The notes beneath the pieces are model-generated. The model ran no database searches. It was not told the DNA's origin and saw only the letters and a list, made by a program, of their open reading frames with translations. A stretch of DNA of 45,266 nucleotides. It comes from a virus (lineage: Duplodnaviria > Heunggongvirae > Uroviricota > Caudoviricetes). The stretch is from the IMG/VR virus record IMGVR_UViG_2718217897_000001, positions 1 through 45,266 of that record. One strand, given 5' to 3'. Below, piece by piece: positions 1 to 45,227 of this stretch (position 1 is its first letter; the number at the start of each line of letters is the position of its first letter). The position numbers were made by a program, and so were the translations under genes.

Positions 1-897
1 TCATTTTAATACCTCTTTGTTTACTGGGGTTAATATCTGAGATGGTAGTTCTGAAAGATTCTCTTGTTCAAGTATATGTTGAAAGCTTTTATTCATCATT
101 ATGATGTTAAAAATCTCATTTACTATTAGTAGGTTGGTTTTTATGAATTTTGAGTTGTTATAAACAGATTTATGTTCAGCGATACTATTTTCATAAAGCT
201 CAATCAACTCCTCTGCAGTCATCCTTTTTGATGGTTTGTGATAATAAAATCCGGCTGCTTTTGCACCTTTATTTCCAACTGTTCTTTGATTTAGAATGTG
301 TTTTATCTTTATAATGTCCCGACTTTTTATTAATTTTTTATCATATGCTTCGGTAAGAATATCTTGTGCTTCCTCAGTTTCACATCTTGCAAATTGCACT
401 GCGAGATACAGAGGCAAATTACCCCGTTCGACTGCTGAGAGAAGTTTATGCTCTCCCTTATCAAGTAGCATATTAATACTGCTCACCCAGTTCGATGAAT
501 ATCCAGTAATCTCACTTATTTCGGAGTCTGAAAGTCCTCTGATTTTCATGTCTTTAATCACCTGTAATAACTCATTAGAACGTGGTCTTCTCCTTGCAAT
601 GTTTTCAACTAAACTCATAACGTAAGCATCTTCTTCTGATACATCTCTTATAATTGCTGGAATAATAGTTTCACCTAATGCAACGAGAGCCTCTATTCTC
701 CCTTGACCACAAATTAAAGCATATTTGAAATCGCCTTCATCAATAGCTCTTACGCTTATAGGCTTGCTTAATCCTCTTTTTTTTATGCTTTCCTTTATTT
801 CTTCATGCACTACCTTATTTCTTGTTCGTGGGTTAAGAAATTTTATTTTTGCAATCTCAATTTGAATTATTGGGAATTCATTTTTTTCAGGCAGCAT
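1..897 (-). CDS. ParB-like protein (ParB/Srx N-terminal domain followed by HTH)
   Basis: Complete 298-aa ORF with stop at 1-3. Contains a GxxRxxA-type ParB box (ICGQGRIEAL) and a downstream HTH-like segment. Overlaps the upstream recombinase gene by 11 nt, so likely co-transcribed. AT-rich by eye. Confidence 0.55.
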   Translation of the reverse strand: MLPEKNEFPIIQIEIAKIKFLNPRTRNKVVHEEIKESIKKRGLSKPISVRAIDEGDFKYALICGQGRIEALVALGETIIPAIIRDVSEEDAYVMSLVENIARRRPRSNELLQVIKDMKIRGLSDSEISEITGYSSNWVSSINMLLDKGEHKLLSAVERGNLPLYLAVQFARCETEEAQDILTEAYDKKLIKSRDIIKIKHILNQRTVGNKGAKAAGFYYHKPSKRMTAEELIELYENSIAEHKSVYNNSKFIKTNLLIVNEIFNIIMMNKSFQHILEQENLSELPSQILTPVNKEVLK

Positions 898-2443
898 ATA
901 GTTCCCTCACTTTCATGCGAGTAATAATTTGTAGAAGTTTATCAAGATTATCAAATCTATAGAGATCTAATCGAATGTTGTTTGTTTCCGTCATGCACAT
1001 TTTATTATATTCGTTTTCAATCTTTGGTATGATATAAAAATCAAGAGGTGAAATATTTTGTGAATTCATTCGTATAACAATTGTTATGTCTGCTTTCTGT
1101 GAGTTATCAAACCGGACTTTCCATCTAAGTTTACCTGATTTCATATGTATGCATTTAGTAACAAGGACGGAAATTAAAAACTCATCATTGATGTAAAGCA
1201 TTGGGGCATATTTATACTCGTCTATATGACAGTTGCTTTTTAAAATTTCACCCTTAAAATCCTCAATTATCTCTGAGTAAAATGATCTTAGTGCTTCATT
1301 TATTTTGAGATAGCTGTAATCATGTTCTGGCTTATAACCAATCAAAGTATATGCTCTTAAAAGACCACCAAATCGGGTTCTATAAACAGAAGATGAAGGG
1401 CCTGTATCATCTTCATCAATGATAAAGCCTGATAGTTTTCCATTAGATTCTAATTTTTGTTTTAGTTTTTCTAATAGATCTTCATTAGTCAAATGAATGG
1501 ATCGGAGCTGAATTATTTCTTGAGCTTTATTGTATTTTTTCTTTGAAATAATAGGTTTATATGCCTTGTCACATCTAACCCATTCATGTTTGGGGTTTTT
1601 TACAAGCCTACTTTTTAATTTAGATGAGGTTTTGTTATATATGTTGTTTCCAATATATTTTTCATTTGTCAAAATTTGATGTATTTTTGCACGAGTCCAT
1701 AATGTACCATTTTCTGCAGGTATGTTCTGTTCATTTAATCTCTCAGCAATAATGAATTCTGGGACGTTATTATCTATAAAGAGATCATATATTCTATTTA
1801 CAATTTTTATTTCATTTTTTGGTCCCGGAATTAATATTACCCTATCTGTTTGAATACTCTTTCTTTTGCGGAAACTCAATATTTCTTTAGCTATGCCATT
1901 TTCGTCTACTAAAAGACGTCTCAGCCCATAACCAGCCATACCGCCTTGATGATAACCAAGCTTTATTAAATTTACTTGCCCTATAAATACCTTTTCAGAT
2001 AGATTCCTGCTGTGATATGCAGCACTAGATCTTTTTATATTCAGTATAACAGAGGACTCTAAAGGGAAATCTTTAGTGGGTATAGGTTCGGAACAATATA
2101 TAAGATCTACACCATTTCTCTCAAATAGAAAGGAATAATATGCCGCTTCATCACTATTTTGAAAACGACCAAAACGGCTCACATCATAAAATAATACAGC
2201 CTGTATATCTATTTTCTTTTGTTCTACATCGCTAAGTAACTGCTGCAAAGAATGCCTGCCTACGATACTGACTCCGCTCTTACCTGAATCATCGTAGGTA
2301 TAAGCGATTTCCATATTGTTCTTTTCAGCATAATCTTTGATATATTCGGACTGATTATGTAAAGAATATTGCTGATGGTCGGTAGACATCCTCAAGTACT
2401 GCGCGACCCTAACTCTATGATTTTTGTCATTTTCGCTAGCCAT
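887..2443 (-). CDS. large serine recombinase (resolvase-type catalytic domain plus recombinase domain)
   Basis: 518-aa ORF. N-terminus has the resolvase signature (YLRMSTDHQ with catalytic Ser, later DVSRFGR). Long C-terminal extension typical of large serine recombinases. AT-rich codon usage. Confidence 0.7.
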   Translation of the reverse strand: MASENDKNHRVRVAQYLRMSTDHQQYSLHNQSEYIKDYAEKNNMEIAYTYDDSGKSGVSIVGRHSLQQLLSDVEQKKIDIQAVLFYDVSRFGRFQNSDEAAYYSFLFERNGVDLIYCSEPIPTKDFPLESSVILNIKRSSAAYHSRNLSEKVFIGQVNLIKLGYHQGGMAGYGLRRLLVDENGIAKEILSFRKRKSIQTDRVILIPGPKNEIKIVNRIYDLFIDNNVPEFIIAERLNEQNIPAENGTLWTRAKIHQILTNEKYIGNNIYNKTSSKLKSRLVKNPKHEWVRCDKAYKPIISKKKYNKAQEIIQLRSIHLTNEDLLEKLKQKLESNGKLSGFIIDEDDTGPSSSVYRTRFGGLLRAYTLIGYKPEHDYSYLKINEALRSFYSEIIEDFKGEILKSNCHIDEYKYAPMLYINDEFLISVLVTKCIHMKSGKLRWKVRFDNSQKADITIVIRMNSQNISPLDFYIIPKIENEYNKMCMTETNNIRLDLYRFDNLDKLLQIITRMKVRELYAA

Positions 2444-2725
2444 GCACGAAACCTCATGGATGATTCAATACAATGTAGTGGATAAAATTGATCAAATTTT
2501 AACCGAATTCAACTGTTTTATCATTGATTAGAGCGAATTTGGTAGATCTTCGAGGTGTATGATAATCGAGAAGAGATGTGAATTATTTAGCTGATATGAC
2601 CGACAGCTTTCGTTATGTGGACTCAATGTCCCCATTTGTAAATGGCTATGCTTAGTCCACATAGGTTAATGGTGTGATTATTAATTCTTTAACTAAATCA
2701 AGATAGTTAATCCATCATGGGAGAG

Positions 2726-3955
2726 TTATGCGGCAATAACTTTGCATTTTTGAGACGAAACATAGTCACTCCACCATTGCATGAGAACCACCCGTTCAGT
2801 GAGATACTCTGCACGATTGTAGGCTGCAATTATTTCATCTTTCTTCGAGTGGGCAAGGGCGGCTTCTAAGACATCAGTCCTAAACTTGCCAGACTCCTCA
2901 GCAGCCGTTCTAGCAATGGATCGCATACCGTGAGCTACAAGCTCACCTCCGAAACCCATACGGATTATGGCCGCATTAGCTGTTTGTTCATGCATGTGAT
3001 TGAGTGGAGCTTTGATACTGGGGAACACCCACTCTCTATGCCCGCTGATGACTTTCATTAAATCCAAAACTCGCAAAGCTTCTTTGCTCAGTGGAACTTT
3101 GTGAGGCTTCTTCATTTTCATAAACTCCGCCGGGATGTTCCACATGCCAGTTTCAATATCAATATCTGACCATCTTGTGCGAACAGCTTCACCTGGGCGA
3201 ACCCATGTGAGAAGTTGCCACTCAATCAGTAGCCTTGTTTCCAAACGGATAGAAGCATTGTTTAGAGCAACCAAGAAGCGAGGGAGTTCGGAAGGGGGTA
3301 ATGCTGGCATATTCTGTTTTTTTGGCTTGCTGAACCGTTGCCCCAGGTTGTCTGCCGGGTTGAATTCTATGAGTTCTTCTGTTGCTGCATAGCGGAAAAT
3401 TTCATTCAGGCGGGATATGATGCGGCGAAGTGTTTCAAGGACACCTCGTTTTTCTATGGGTTCTAAATGCTGTTTAAGCATTTTAGGGCGAATCTCCTTA
3501 ATTGGGGTATCACCCAATGTGGAAAAGATATTTCTCTCTAGGCTTCGCCAGATGTCGTTAGCATGATCTTGGGAGATGCCTGACGTTTTGACTTTCTCAT
3601 CAAGCCACTTCTTGGCTACTGCTTGAAATGTATGTTCCGTGGCATCTTTCAGTGCATTGGCTTTTTGGTTGTTATGAACTTGGGGGTCTATACCATTTGT
3701 AAGCAACGACAAGTATTCATCACGTAAAGCTCGTGCCTTCGCAAGTGTAAGGTGAGGATAGGTTCCTAAGCTCACCTTAGTTCGCTTTTTGGTCACAGGC
3801 ACTGCATATCTGAAATACCAATTTTTCTTCCCTCCCTTCGCCAGGGGAGCGATTCGCAACAGCAAACCATCGCCGTCAAAAAGGTTAACCTCTTTTTCGG
3901 CAGGTTTGGTGCTTTTGATTTCAGTGTCAGTGAGCTTCTTAGCGATTTTGGCCAT
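2726..3955 (-). CDS. intA: tyrosine integrase, P4/IntA (CP4-57) family
   Basis: Translation from MAKIAKKLTDTEIK resembles the N-terminus of E. coli IntA/SlpA, with C-terminal HGxRS and AYNR motifs. The ORF track extends to 4036, but the ATG at 3955 is the likelier start. Lies ~165 bp downstream of a displaced ssrA 3'-end copy, as intA does relative to ssrA in K-12. Confidence 0.8.
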   Translation of the reverse strand: MAKIAKKLTDTEIKSTKPAEKEVNLFDGDGLLLRIAPLAKGGKKNWYFRYAVPVTKKRTKVSLGTYPHLTLAKARALRDEYLSLLTNGIDPQVHNNQKANALKDATEHTFQAVAKKWLDEKVKTSGISQDHANDIWRSLERNIFSTLGDTPIKEIRPKMLKQHLEPIEKRGVLETLRRIISRLNEIFRYAATEELIEFNPADNLGQRFSKPKKQNMPALPPSELPRFLVALNNASIRLETRLLIEWQLLTWVRPGEAVRTRWSDIDIETGMWNIPAEFMKMKKPHKVPLSKEALRVLDLMKVISGHREWVFPSIKAPLNHMHEQTANAAIIRMGFGGELVAHGMRSIARTAAEESGKFRTDVLEAALAHSKKDEIIAAYNRAEYLTERVVLMQWWSDYVSSQKCKVIAA

Positions 3956-4052
3956 GTTTGGGACCCTCGATTTTAGGACCCATCTTCGTGGGTCCCATTC
4001 AGGGTGCCATAACTCGTAGTTCTCAGCAATTCTCACTAGACTACAATAGACG

Positions 4053-4086
4053 TAAAAAAGCCCGCAGAGCTTGTGCTGTGCGGGCT
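4053..4086 (-). terminator. rho-independent terminator downstream of the displaced ssrA 3' fragment
   Basis: Stem agcccgca / tgcgggct with an A-run on the plus strand, which is a U-run for a minus-strand transcript. Confidence 0.5.
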
Positions 4087-4121
4087 TAGTAGACTTTACT
4101 GAACTTCAGTACATCAATATT

Positions 4122-4157
4122 TGGTGGAGCTGGCGGGAGTTGAACCCGTGTCTGAAA
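4122..4157 (-). repeat. displaced ssrA 3'-end copy; prophage attachment-site repeat (attR)
   Basis: tggtggagctggcgggagttgaacccgTgtcTgaaa matches the ssrA 3' end at 44865-44900 with 2 mismatches over ~36 nt. Confidence 0.85.
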
Positions 4158-4186: not shown

Positions 4187-4966
4187 TTATCTGAACATGG
4201 CGTTTGCGGCGCTTTTGCGTATCTTCTCTAGACCTTTTGTAGTCCATTTCTCTGGTACAGGTGTAAACCGTAGTGCAAAATCTGCCTCCATATTATCACC
4301 ACTGAAACGTGCCACTCCACGTTCCAATTTTGTTTGCCAAGTGACTTTTTTAGTTTTACCCTCTATATCTTGATATTCAATAATTAATTTTGGACCAGTG
4401 AATGATGAAGAACCGACTAATTTAAGTCTATGTGAAAGATATGCTATATTCAATAGAATATCAATTGCCGCGGTTGGTACAAAAATGTTTTTTGACTTCT
4501 TATCTATACTATATGGTAACGAAAAATCAATATCGTAAGGTGTCGATAAAGTATTGTACATATATACTTTTCTTTCTTTTATTATTTTGAACATTCCATA
4601 CTGGGAGTCGGTTGTAAAAGATTTATCTTCTTTTTTGAATTTTTTCGAAAACAACTCTAAATATAGATTTATGTTTTTTTTATAATTAAAATCCCAATGA
4701 TATCTAAGTGAAATTGCCGCCCCCAATCCTATGTTTGAAAATTTTGTTTGTGGAAGCGTAGGGGCTTGTAAGATATCAACATGAAAACCGTTGAAATCGT
4801 TAACATTCATCTTGATATTTAAAGTGTCTATCACTAAATTGGGTTTATAAGAGAGCCTTCTTTGAAATATCGTTAACCATATTGCATATAATGCAGCAAT
4901 TGCTGAAATGAAAGTACCAACTGAAGATATGTAGGTGATTAGTTTGTCGAATGTAATTGTAATCAA
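4187..4966 (-). CDS. hypothetical membrane-anchored protein (cargo between attR and int)
   Basis: 259-aa ORF with a TTG start and a plausible GGGGA Shine-Dalgarno. One N-terminal hydrophobic helix (ISSVGTFISAIAALYAIWLTIF). Strongly AT-rich versus neighbours. No family recognised. Confidence 0.55.
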   Translation of the reverse strand: MITITFDKLITYISSVGTFISAIAALYAIWLTIFQRRLSYKPNLVIDTLNIKMNVNDFNGFHVDILQAPTLPQTKFSNIGLGAAISLRYHWDFNYKKNINLYLELFSKKFKKEDKSFTTDSQYGMFKIIKERKVYMYNTLSTPYDIDFSLPYSIDKKSKNIFVPTAAIDILLNIAYLSHRLKLVGSSSFTGPKLIIEYQDIEGKTKKVTWQTKLERGVARFSGDNMEADFALRFTPVPEKWTTKGLEKIRKSAANAMFR

Positions 4967-5007: not shown

Positions 5008-6180
5008 TTAATTATGATTATGCAAATGATTTATCGATGTAAAGTTATCATACTCTTTAAGATACGAACCATAGTGCCTGAAAAGCATCTCCGGCCCTTT
5101 ATGCCCCATTTGAGCTGCAAGCCAAAACAGGTTTGCTCCTCGGCTGATATGGCTGGTGGCGAATGTATGCCTGGTTTGATATGGGTTTCTGTAACGAATA
5201 CCTGCTTTTCGCAATGTTGGCACCCATGCTTTTTTCCTAATTGCATCAGCACTTGCCCAAGGCTTATTGGTCTTTGGATCTTCAAAGACAGTAGCATCCT
5301 TCATGAATGTAAATGGCTTCTGATTTATCAGCGCCAACATTGCCTCTTCTGTCAGTTCAACTTTCCGAGTACCTGCTTTTGTCTTTGTCCCTTTGATAAC
5401 ACCGACAACACTTGCGCTCTGGACATGGGCAGTTTTTCCAACAAAGTCGATATCACGCCATCGAAGGGCACATAATTCAGAACTACGCAGGCCTGTATGT
5501 ATAGCGAACCGGAACAGATTTTCCCATTGTTTGTTTCCGGCTGCTGCTAGTAATGCATCAACTTCTGCTGGTGATAGCGGATCAACTACGTAGCTGCTTT
5601 CTGCTTCTGACTTATCACTTTGGTAGCGCGAAGCTGTTACTAACGATACGGGGTTAATTTGAAGTACCCCATCGGTCACGGCTTCATCAAGTGCTGACCG
5701 CAGGAAAGATAACTGGTTGCGAATGGTTTTTAAGGTCGTTTTCTGGCTTTGAATCCACGCTTTCAGGGTTGCTGGTGTTAATTCACTTGCAGGGCAAATG
5801 TGAAGTGAGGCTAACGCACTACGGCATTTTTTATAACCACCGATCGTGGATGGTGAAAGTTTCCTCGTTTCGCAGATTTCAAGGTATTCGTCCAGGTACA
5901 TTTTTACCGTTTTGCCTGCAGCAGCATTACCAAAAATTTTCAAACGAGCAGAACGGGGAAAATATTCCGCATAAATGAATGTTCCCCTTTCGATCTTATT
6001 ATGAATTTCGCCGAGTGTGCGCTCAGCGTATTTAATGTTCTTTGGTGTTACTTCCAGATTGGAAAGAGGCTCACGACATTTAACTCCTTTGTAGGTGAAA
6101 GTTATATTGATCGTTTCGCCCTGGCGGTGTTTCCTGATTGTTACGCCGCGCGGTAGTTTGAGCAGTTTTGTCTGGCCCAT
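5008..6180 (-). CDS. int: phage tyrosine integrase
   Basis: 390 aa. C-terminal catalytic region has R...HxxR...Y-type motifs (YQTRHTFAT, GHKGPEMLFRHYGSY). Adjacent to attR and an excisionase gene. Confidence 0.85.
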   Translation of the reverse strand: MGQTKLLKLPRGVTIRKHRQGETINITFTYKGVKCREPLSNLEVTPKNIKYAERTLGEIHNKIERGTFIYAEYFPRSARLKIFGNAAAGKTVKMYLDEYLEICETRKLSPSTIGGYKKCRSALASLHICPASELTPATLKAWIQSQKTTLKTIRNQLSFLRSALDEAVTDGVLQINPVSLVTASRYQSDKSEAESSYVVDPLSPAEVDALLAAAGNKQWENLFRFAIHTGLRSSELCALRWRDIDFVGKTAHVQSASVVGVIKGTKTKAGTRKVELTEEAMLALINQKPFTFMKDATVFEDPKTNKPWASADAIRKKAWVPTLRKAGIRYRNPYQTRHTFATSHISRGANLFWLAAQMGHKGPEMLFRHYGSYLKEYDNFTSINHLHNHN

Positions 6181-11828: not shown

Positions 11829-12770
11829 ATGAGCACTAAATTAACCGGCTATGTATGGGATGGTTGCGCTGCATCAGGCATGAAATTATCCAGCGTGGCA
11901 ATTATGGCCCGCCTGGCTGATTTCAGTAATGACGAAGGTGTGTGCTGGCCATCAATTGAAACTATTGCCCGTCAGATTGGCGCGGGGATGAGTACCGTCA
12001 GGACGGCTATCGCACGGCTGGAAGCAGAAGGCTGGTTAACGCGTAAGGCGCGTCGCCAGGGTAACCGCAATGCGTCGAATGTTTATCAGCTTAACGTTGC
12101 GAAGCTTCAGGCAGCGGCATTTTCTCAACTGTCAGATTCTGACCCGTCAAAATCTGACGCATCAAAATCTGACCCGTCAAAATTTGATGCGTCGAAATCT
12201 GGCAAAAAAGCGGGTTTTCACCCGTCAGAATCTGGCGGGGATCCGTCAGTAAAATCAAAACATGATCCGTCAGATAAAAAACCTTCTCGTCCGGACGCTT
12301 CGCAACCGGACACGCAGACGGATGAACAGGATTTTTTAACTCGCCATCCTGATGCGGTTGTATTCAGCCCTAAAAAGCGCCAGTGGGGAACGCAGGATGA
12401 TTTGACCTGCGCACAGTGGCTCTGGAAAAAAATCATCGCCCTGTACGAGCAAGCCGCCGAATGTGACGGCGAGGTGGTTCGTCCCAAAGAACCGAACTGG
12501 ACAGCCTGGGCAAACGAAATTCGCCTGATGTGTGTGCAGGATGGTCGTACTCACAAACAAATCTGCGAGATGTACAGCCGCGTCAGCCGCGATCCGTTCT
12601 GGTGCCGTAACGTGCTCAGCCCGTCGAAGTTGCGGGAAAAATGGGATGAGCTTTCCCTGCGCTTATCACCGTCCGTCAGCACGTACACCGAAAAACGCGA
12701 AGACCCGTACTTCAAATCCAGTTACGACAACGTGGACTACAGCCAGATCCCGGCAGGATTCAGGGGGTGA
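11829..12770 (+). CDS. replication initiator (lambda O-like; N-terminal winged HTH) with internal origin iterons
   Basis: 313 aa. N-terminal HTH, then a repeat-encoded SDSDPSKSDASKSDPSKFDASKS segment matching the DNA iterons. Confidence 0.65.
   Translation: MSTKLTGYVWDGCAASGMKLSSVAIMARLADFSNDEGVCWPSIETIARQIGAGMSTVRTAIARLEAEGWLTRKARRQGNRNASNVYQLNVAKLQAAAFSQLSDSDPSKSDASKSDPSKFDASKSGKKAGFHPSESGGDPSVKSKHDPSDKKPSRPDASQPDTQTDEQDFLTRHPDAVVFSPKKRQWGTQDDLTCAQWLWKKIIALYEQAAECDGEVVRPKEPNWTAWANEIRLMCVQDGRTHKQICEMYSRVSRDPFWCRNVLSPSKLREKWDELSLRLSPSVSTYTEKREDPYFKSSYDNVDYSQIPAGFRG
12129..12275. repeat. origin iterons (about 7-8 direct repeats of a CCGTCA(A/G)AATCTG-like unit)
   Basis: Tandem direct repeats visible at 12129-12275 inside the initiator gene, as in lambda ori within O. 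Confidence 0.7.
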
Positions 12771-44740: not shown

Positions 44741-44864
44741 TCACTCGGGAGCCGCGGCTCCTTTGCGTATCCTTTTTTGTCTCCTCACCGTCTGGTCAGT
44801 GTCCTGCTGAGACTGCTAACTTCCTGTTTTTGTTGGTGTTGTCCTTACACCGTCCAATCATGAT

Positions 44865-44900
44865 TGGTGGAGCTGGCGGGAGTTGAACCCGCGTCCGAAA
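44865..44900 (-). repeat. attachment-site repeat within the ssrA 3' end (attL)
   Basis: Matches 4122-4157. Confidence 0.85.
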
Positions 44901-45227
44901 TTCCTACATCCTCGGTACTACATGCTTAGTCAGTCTTTATATTCGCTTGCCAGCTGCGGACGGACACGCCACTAACAAACTAGCCTGATTAAGTTTTAAC
45001 GCTTCAACCCCAGGCAGGGCTTCCACGCGATCTCTTTTGGGTTTGACCTCTCTTGATCCCCGTCCTAAGAGCGGAGGCTAGGGAGAGAGGGCTCTAAGCA
45101 GGTTATTAAGCTGCTAAAGCGTAGTTTTCGTCGTTTGCGACTATTTTTTGCGGCTTTTTACGAGGCCAACCGCCCCTCGGCATGCACCTTGGGTTTCGCA
45201 AATCCCGTCGAATCCAGAATCAGCCCC
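44865..45227 (-). ncRNA. ssrA: tmRNA (SsrA), intact, 363 nt
   Basis: Reverse complement begins GGGGCTGATTCTGGATTCGACGGG and ends CCCGCCAGCTCCACCA. Encodes the ANDENYALAA tag region (gcaaacgacgaaaactacgctttagcagcttaa). Confidence 0.97.

Follow-up and report, generated by a model that had tools for sequence, protein, structure and literature searches.

What does a large serine recombinase (LSR) do beside ssrA, in an island whose integration a tyrosine integrase already explains? The question is raised by the left end of the viral record IMGVR_UViG_2718217897_000001 (IMG/VR), a stretch of 45,266 nt hereafter called the window, in which the gene of a 518-aa LSR runs into that of a ParB-like protein. 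The initial annotation regarded the two as a co-transcribed pair that could be a second mobility or resolution module, a plasmid-like partition remnant or a ParB-nuclease-based accessory function. Our analysis firmly supports an autonomous unit of three genes, the LSR followed by two ParB-family genes (ParB1 and ParB2), which is carried as cargo in flexible genome regions and is neither a partition system nor the integration module of the island.

A Unit of Three Genes

The LSR is encoded at positions 887-2443 of the minus strand and matches the Pfam families Resolvase (PF00239, 9e-22) and Recombinase (PF07508, 6e-22, residues 210-312). ParB1 (298 aa, positions 1-897, minus strand) matches ParB_N (1.6e-13) and RepB (8.5e-8) and scores above the cutoff of the NCBIfam model parB_part (TIGR00180). 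As had been proposed, the two reading frames overlap by 11 nt (887-897 in the open reading frame (ORF) list of the window), and their co-transcription is upheld. Both genes are AT-rich (GC 0.31-0.33 vs ~0.5); the first two kilobases of the window have a GC content of 0.334 and 0.306 as against about 0.5 in most of it. The third gene had been missed. The window begins exactly at the ParB1 stop codon (1-3), and ParB2 is therefore hidden. Positions 1-4100 are 100% identical to Escherichia coli B (REL606, BL21) and strain C, and in REL606 the order of the island is ssrA, integrase, recombinase, ParB1, ParB2, about 400 nt, IS1 and the core gene glaH. ParB2 (298 aa, ParB_N and RepB) is encoded immediately beyond the left end of the window, and in REL606 its gene shares 4 nt with that of ParB1. 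The island was thus rightly said to continue beyond the window, and extension to the left brought up a second ParB, IS1 and core genes, not a standard module of an integrative and conjugative element (ICE) or plasmid with its ParA and parS. The pair is a unit insofar as its domains and linkage were read correctly, but the autonomous unit has three genes and not two.

The order LSR, ParB1-type gene, ParB2-type gene, with overlapping stop and start codons, recurs in all four annotated plasmid loci (Agrobacterium pAtC58, Piscinibacter, Pseudomonas aeruginosa and Burkholderia), where the recombinase is full length at ~45% identity. One genome per GTDB species was scanned with a profile, which gave at least 600 matches and at least 595 confirmed relatives. 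Among the best 80 of these, with ORFs called by a simple longest-ORF heuristic, the full order is present in 70 loci, and the remaining 10 either lie at contig ends or are visibly truncated. The 80 best loci belong to alpha-, beta- and gamma-proteobacteria, Acidobacteriota, Planctomycetota, Myxococcota, Bdellovibrionota and one Clostridia metagenome-assembled genome. The recombinase family as a whole comprises 1351 clusters (50% identity) at E<1e-30.

Within E. coli, the 3.9-kb operon is carried by 654 of 5426 complete genomes (~12%), including BL21 and REL606. In 623 of them the match has a coverage of at least 80%, the ORFs are intact in the genomes listed, and the copy number per carrying genome is 1 to 2 (median 1). 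None of the 655 matching places in the complete E. coli genomes is on a plasmid. In PLSDB the triad is full length on 65 of 72,556 records (~0.09%), mostly megaplasmids, and most of the GTDB loci are on large chromosomal contigs. One small-plasmid example (L102, NZ_CP110863.1, 13 kb, PLSDB, labelled Lactiplantibacillus plantarum) was discarded because a GC content of 63-70% with a proteobacterial-type triad makes it almost certainly a contaminant or a mis-assigned record. In phages the triad is nearly absent: the one full-length match in 50,697 GenBank phage records is an unverified scaffold, and 169 of 2.9 million IMG/VR contigs contain the triad, often at contig edges. A phage origin was rejected on the strength of this near absence from sequenced phages and rarity in IMG/VR.

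All three genes are under purifying selection, as shown by dN/dS values of 0.11, 0.07 and 0.05 for LSR, ParB1 and ParB2 in a comparison of two E. coli variants with 6% DNA divergence. The low dN/dS, together with the three-gene synteny across phyla, means that these are functional genes and not a remnant. No ParA was found: an ORF with the motif KGGxGK[ST] is missing within ~8 kb in 94 loci, and the annotated loci have none. The PADLOC 2.0 models (2023 release) gave no match for LSR or ParB1 at E 0.01, with ParB2 outside the scan. A full-text literature search returned no description of the gene trio, in a library that is incomplete, so that an earlier description is possible, and one ParB-fold survey does not mention a linkage to a recombinase. 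The obligate, phylum-spanning coupling of an LSR with ParB proteins is thus not described in the literature searched.

The Recombinase and Its C-Terminal Domain

The LSR is laid out as a catalytic domain (S20 nucleophile in YLRMST; DVSRFGR), a recombinase domain and a family-specific C-terminal domain (~296-518). Residues S20, R18, D87, R90 and R93 are invariant in alignments of 30 and of 101 sequences, and Y16 is kept too. The best NCBIfam match of the protein is CcrB, and the same scan relates the catalytic domain to invertases. In the integrases of SPbeta, Bxb1 and PhiC31, a zinc-ribbon/coiled-coil module serves for reading the outer half-site and for the control of directionality. No zinc ribbon or coiled coil was found in the LSR of the triad, which has no Pfam match past residue 312 (E 0.01) and no CxxC pairs anywhere in its sequence. 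Profile alignments to the PDB end at about residue 317, and in Foldseek the similarity to the SPbeta, Bxb1 and PhiC31 integrases covers ~318 residues; the match of the AlphaFold2 (AF2) model (pLDDT 77) to the SPbeta integrase SprA has an E-value of 1e-15.

Residues 296-518 are conserved within the family and bear the motifs PSSxxYxxRFGSLxRAY and PDITxAxRMD. This domain of ~220 aa is modelled as a helical segment followed by an eight-stranded beta domain, and the model matches no known fold firmly. Its structural matches in the PDB, the N-terminal domain of Eco15I and PvuII, are weak (E 0.02-0.05), and those in BFVD are uncharacterised viral proteins. A restriction-endonuclease-like fold of the predicted domain is a lead and not a result. 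Separately, precomputed Pfam annotation places PF18780 on the recombinase homologues P0280 and P0354, where it may lie in the conserved C-terminal region.

Two Distinct ParB/Srx Proteins

The N-terminal part of ParB1 has a ParB/Srx fold of the CTPase type; box I reads GLSKPISV, box II is modified to GQGR, box III reads ENIARR, and a helix-turn-helix (HTH)/RepB-like region follows. The GxxRxxA box and HTH that had been noticed earlier are real: the box is G64-Q-G-R67-x-x-A70, box III contains E98-N-I-A-R102, and the alignment of the protein with Spo0J, Noc and KorB extends through the HTH region. ParB1 orthologues (n=80) keep GLKxPITV, CGQGRxEA and ENxARR. ParB2 orthologues keep LDGHxR and DDExFTYN, and ParB2 resembles Noc and the ParB/Srx-fold serine kinase SerK. 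The two proteins share only ~30% identity over 60 aa and form distinct orthologous groups, each with its own motifs. Judging from these motifs, the pair is composed of one clamp-like (ParB1) and one apparently enzyme-like, DGHxR-type (ParB2) ParB/Srx protein. No parS-like, very highly conserved DNA window was seen within the coding region of 35 cassettes, and the leader has short inverted repeats only.

The Leader and the Search for a Recombination Site

The operon leader is the intergenic sequence at 2444-2725 (minus strand). It contains a candidate sigma-70-like promoter by consensus match, with the -35 element at 2524-2519 and the -10 element TAAAAT at 2501-2496, and an inverted repeat, TAAAATT-N5-AATTTTA (2483-2501), which overlaps the -10-like hexamer; all are on the minus strand. 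The promoter-proximal 170 nt, including the inverted repeat, are conserved among variants, and the repeat is a plausible operator to judge from its sequence and position.

Further upstream, a 50-bp dyad (2614-2663, z=5.6) has the highest dyad score of all loci, and a 12-nt direct copy of its sequence beyond ParB2 means that a direct repeat flanks the E. coli B triad. The dyad was considered as the crossover site of the recombinase and rejected on three grounds. The sequence of its arms differs between variants from E. coli and Salmonella with no compensating changes, the predicted excision junction occurs in 0 of 5426 E. coli genomes, and direct repeats in the flanks show no enrichment in a set of 72 loci, where shared flanking 11-mers are direct in 8 and inverted in 4 with ~3.6 expected by chance. 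The repeat and dyad scans revealed no res-like array of repeated subsites either.

Additional Components in Relatives

In 49 loci, a divergent XRE-like HTH gene of ~115-130 aa lies directly upstream of the recombinase (for example L002:5535-5939, L004:5489-5839 and L027:847-1230, all on the minus strand). It has no Pfam match, shares the core motif KTxMRWTGAxERTVKNW...GPSGxHL and is absent from the E. coli version. The intergenic region next to it contains tandem palindromes, GCACAnnTGTGCCCATYTT, which look like candidate operators.

In 36 of 74 loci, all of them of the alphaproteobacterial type (for example L044:9375-9492, L027:4726-4843 and L010:11329-11446), a GC-rich element of ~115 nt comes after the stop codon of ParB2; it is present neither in the window nor in E. 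coli. Between cassettes it has a mean identity of 86% vs 60% for coding DNA. It folds into five helices with 26 pairs, 98% of the cells being paired and 9 pairs having compensatory changes, as against only 26-43% paired in slid-partner controls. Many of the pairs are G-U on the operon strand, and downstream of the element come hairpins, which vary, and an intrinsic terminator. Rfam gave no match at gathering or permissive thresholds, and an identity as tRNA, tmRNA or att fragment was dismissed, ARAGORN and Rfam both being blank at that position. A covariance model of this candidate RNA detected none in E. coli, pAtC58 or the beta/gamma loci. Since it is undetectable in E. coli, the RNA is an accessory component and does not belong to the core. 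An independent scan of metagenomes showed a ParB2-like gene ahead of 77 of the 90 testable copies, at a median distance of 35 nt; the RNA may not be exclusive to the triad, because 13 of the 90 follow short or unrelated ORFs. The motif is in its own right a candidate for a new RNA family. In these alphaproteobacterial cassettes homology ends sharply at the XRE stop codon and past the terminator. The ends were placed at about -500 nt from the catalytic YxRMST motif (which is ~45 nt inside the LSR gene) on one side and at +150 to +290 nt on the other.

Genomic Neighbourhood

The immediate neighbours of the triad have no conserved identity or orientation across loci. Recurrent among them are defence and toxin-antitoxin genes (type I restriction-modification, methyltransferases, AbiE, ParE, Fic/SoFic, AriA and mad genes) as well as mobile-element genes (TniQ, DDE transposases and resolvases), and the flanks also include DarTG, dCTP deaminase, AbiL, NACHT, Hxs, PARIS and Tn7-like cargo. 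In Piscinibacter, the triad directly follows tnsA-tnsB-tniB-tniQ. A tyrosine recombinase lies at most 3 kb away in 17 of 134 loci; judged from general expectation and without a matched control, this proximity is enriched, and it is clearly not obligate. Fic genes made up 6 of the 10 upstream genes sampled, and pAtC58 has one as well. As a side observation, a Fic_N+Fic (SoFic-like) gene repeatedly lies right next to the cassette (loci L139, L140, L144, L160, L143, L068 and L002), and several Rhodobacterales-type loci have this Fic gene beside one for tRNA-Met at the edge of the contig or provirus.

In Enterobacteriaceae (E. coli, Enterobacter and Salmonella), integrase and triad form a constant head at ssrA, followed by variable distal cargo. 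As cargo, E. coli B has IS1, strain 300709 has NACHT, RelA/SpoT and relaxase genes, Enterobacter has UvrA-like and ThiF genes, and Salmonella has HNH_5 and DUF5677. The opposite flank of the integrase holds a DarTG or dCTP-deaminase gene. A second E. coli context (L086) has the triad among AbiL, DUF6119 and Hxs genes. There, 558 nt of an integrase 3' end (L086:7175-7735), 94% identical to the ssrA-island integrase of the window, and a second integrase 3' fragment (L086:11434-11677, 244 nt, 82% identity) bracket the triad, which suggests recombination between the integrase genes of tandem islands. As both E. coli contexts share the 558 nt integrase 3' end, the cassette moved along with neighbouring DNA.

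Proposed Function and Its Rivals

The triad is a self-contained accessory operon that travels as cargo of other mobile elements, its carrier here being the P4-type integrase island at ssrA. We propose that ParB1 and ParB2 would form a DNA-bound, nucleotide-switched complex, which would supply the site recognition and licensing otherwise given by the zinc-ribbon/coiled-coil module, and the recombinase would cut or recombine DNA only where this complex is loaded. In many relatives, the operon would be regulated by the divergent XRE-type repressor. Since the LSR has lost the module and was never found without both ParBs, it is most economical to let the ParB pair provide DNA targeting and nucleotide-dependent licensing. 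We infer this mechanism from the unit itself, its conservation, the catalytic residues, the missing module, the selection, the lack of ParA and the flexible location. Of the functions initially suggested, a second mobility or resolution module and a ParB-based accessory function are both possible.

As to the biological role, we rank first a part in mobile-element conflict, or in defence or exclusion against incoming DNA, because of a distribution in the manner of hot spots and defence islands, the lack of plasmid enrichment and the XRE regulator. The assignment is tentative, with the chances leaning somewhat against it, and several points speak to the contrary. Neither experiment nor homology ties the triad to a validated defence system (PADLOC 2.0 is blank). 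Among the neighbours, mobile-element genes are as frequent as defence genes, and this neighbourhood evidence is qualitative, having no matched control. The enterobacterial triad is always linked to the integrase, like a backbone gene of the island family, and searches of the leader, of flank repeats and of junctions identified no recombination site. Moreover, E. coli B, which carries the operon, is a classic phage-sensitive host, and a covalent, single-turnover recombinase would be an unusual effector. A fuller proposal would make the triad an undescribed DNA-conflict machine, in which a heteromeric ParB/Srx pair replaces the control module of the LSR and targets or licenses cleavage or recombination on foreign or cis-linked DNA, with a novel and very highly conserved structured RNA in the 3' untranslated region added in alphaproteobacteria; that much we regard as rather unlikely.

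Ranked second is maintenance of mobile elements. Here the recombinase would be a resolvase that acts at a cassette-internal site on multimers or cointegrates of plasmids or excised islands, and the ParBs would be accessory-site or topology-sensing proteins, or a ParA-independent stabiliser. It is generally known that serine recombinases without a zinc-ribbon/coiled-coil module normally need accessory proteins or sites (Tn3, Sin, Hin), and the 65 full-length triads on PLSDB plasmids, the adjoining transposition or integration modules, the constant integrase partner in enterobacterial ssrA islands with variable distal cargo and the conserved inverted repeat in the promoter region all agree with such a role. 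What makes it doubtful is the absence of plasmid enrichment (0/655 E. coli places, ~0.09% of PLSDB, mostly chromosomal contigs) and of a res-like subsite array, and the presence of a tyrosine recombinase within 3 kb in only 17/134 loci. Self-mobility, with the recombinase as integrase or transposase of a 3.5-4.5 kb cassette and the ParBs as accessory or directionality factors, could account for the sharp homology ends of the alphaproteobacterial group, for near-identical cassettes in two E. coli contexts and for the 12-nt direct repeat around the E. coli B triad. Against it stands the copy number of 1 to 2 per E. coli genome (median 1); flanking direct 11-mers (8/72, inverted 4) are to be compared with ~3.6 by chance, the excision junction was seen in 0/5426 E. 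coli genomes, the 50-bp dyad is not conserved, and the 558 nt integrase 3' end is common to both E. coli contexts. We thus hold self-mobility to be improbable.

A DNA-inversion or phase-variation switch, in which the recombinase flips a nearby promoter or gene segment, is hinted at by sources that annotate a "Pin-like DNA invertase" and by the relation of the catalytic domain to invertases. It is highly improbable nonetheless, as no inverted-repeat pair surrounds a plausible invertible segment, 30/30 E. coli matches listed in full are colinear and in a single piece, and the neighbours are not conserved, so that there is no common target gene. The least credible of all is decay from a plasmid or ICE partition and resolution module, which would explain AT-rich foreign DNA beside IS1 in E. 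coli B and the RepB and ParB annotations. The idea of a plasmid-like partition remnant is refuted by dN/dS of 0.05-0.11 and by the three-gene operon across phyla; intact E. coli ORFs, the obligatory character of the synteny and the absence of ParA likewise stand against decay, for which we see hardly any chance.

Comparison with Known Systems

With the LSRs of phages and transposons (SPbeta SprA, Bxb1, PhiC31, TnpX, CcrB), the LSR of the triad shares the resolvase domain with a serine nucleophile and the "Recombinase" domain. It differs from them in having its own domain of ~220 aa in place of the zinc ribbon/coiled coil, in being obligately followed by two ParB-family genes, in that no att sites were found for it, and in its near absence from phages. 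The likeness to ParABS/RepAB and to CTP clamps (Spo0J, Noc, KorB) consists of boxes I and III and the HTH of ParB1, and of the match of both ParBs to the RepB family of Pfam. Unlike ParABS, the triad has no ParA and has two divergent ParBs, is mostly chromosomal and is translationally coupled to a recombinase; in place of the GERR box II of ParABS ParB, ParB1 has GQGR and ParB2 has DGHxR.

The concept of a serine recombinase under accessory control, in compact autonomous cassettes on mobile elements, is shared with Tn3/gamma-delta resolvase-res, Sin-Hbsu, Hin-Fis and RK2 parCBA. In contrast to these systems, the triad shows neither a res-type array in our searches nor plasmid enrichment, and its accessory proteins would be of the ParB/Srx fold. 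To our knowledge, there is no precedent for ParB/Srx-fold proteins as accessory factors of serine recombinases. Defence-island systems (Wadjet, Lamassu, ParB/Srx-like DndB and DUF262 components) resemble the triad in their compact operons, sporadic occurrence, integrase-proximal hot spots or Tn7 cargo and, often, an XRE regulator; the triad differs in that it has no match to PADLOC 2.0 models, and we know of no serine recombinase that serves as a defence effector.

ParB-family CTP switches and LSRs have both been studied intensively, the latter also as genome-engineering tools. Should the ParB pair control the place or timing of the recombinase, this would be a new way of regulating serine recombinases and would give ParB proteins a new role apart from segregation; should the triad be a defence or exclusion system, it would bring in a new effector class. 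The operon is intact in BL21(DE3) and REL606 and is therefore directly testable by standard genetics, and it may influence how plasmids behave in the expression host that is used most widely.

Layout of the Island and the Prophage

The older ssrA island with an IntA-type integrase, as recognised at the outset, was corroborated. Its P4/IntA-type tyrosine integrase is encoded at 2726-3955 (or to 4036) on the minus strand (NCBIfam NF007246, 3e-133) and reads into the recombinase gene; integration is indeed accounted for by this enzyme. The tmRNA gene ssrA lies at 44865-45227 (minus strand). A copy of its 3' end, the att core, lies at 4121-4157 (37 nt, 95% identical to 44864-44900) and marks the junction of the older island with a later prophage inserted at ssrA. 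From this repeat of the ssrA 3' end, it follows that a prophage of ~40.7 kb separates ssrA from the older island.

Two minor observations concern the prophage. An ORF of 259 aa (4187-4966, minus strand), which has a hydrophobic helix at its N-terminus and matches nothing in Pfam, NCBIfam or PADLOC, lies between the att copy at 4121-4157 and the prophage integrase at 5008-6180, which is a typical position for a moron or defence gene. Six tandem 15-nt iteron-like repeats (TCAAAATCTGACCCG) at 12117-12239 probably belong to a lambda-type replication origin.

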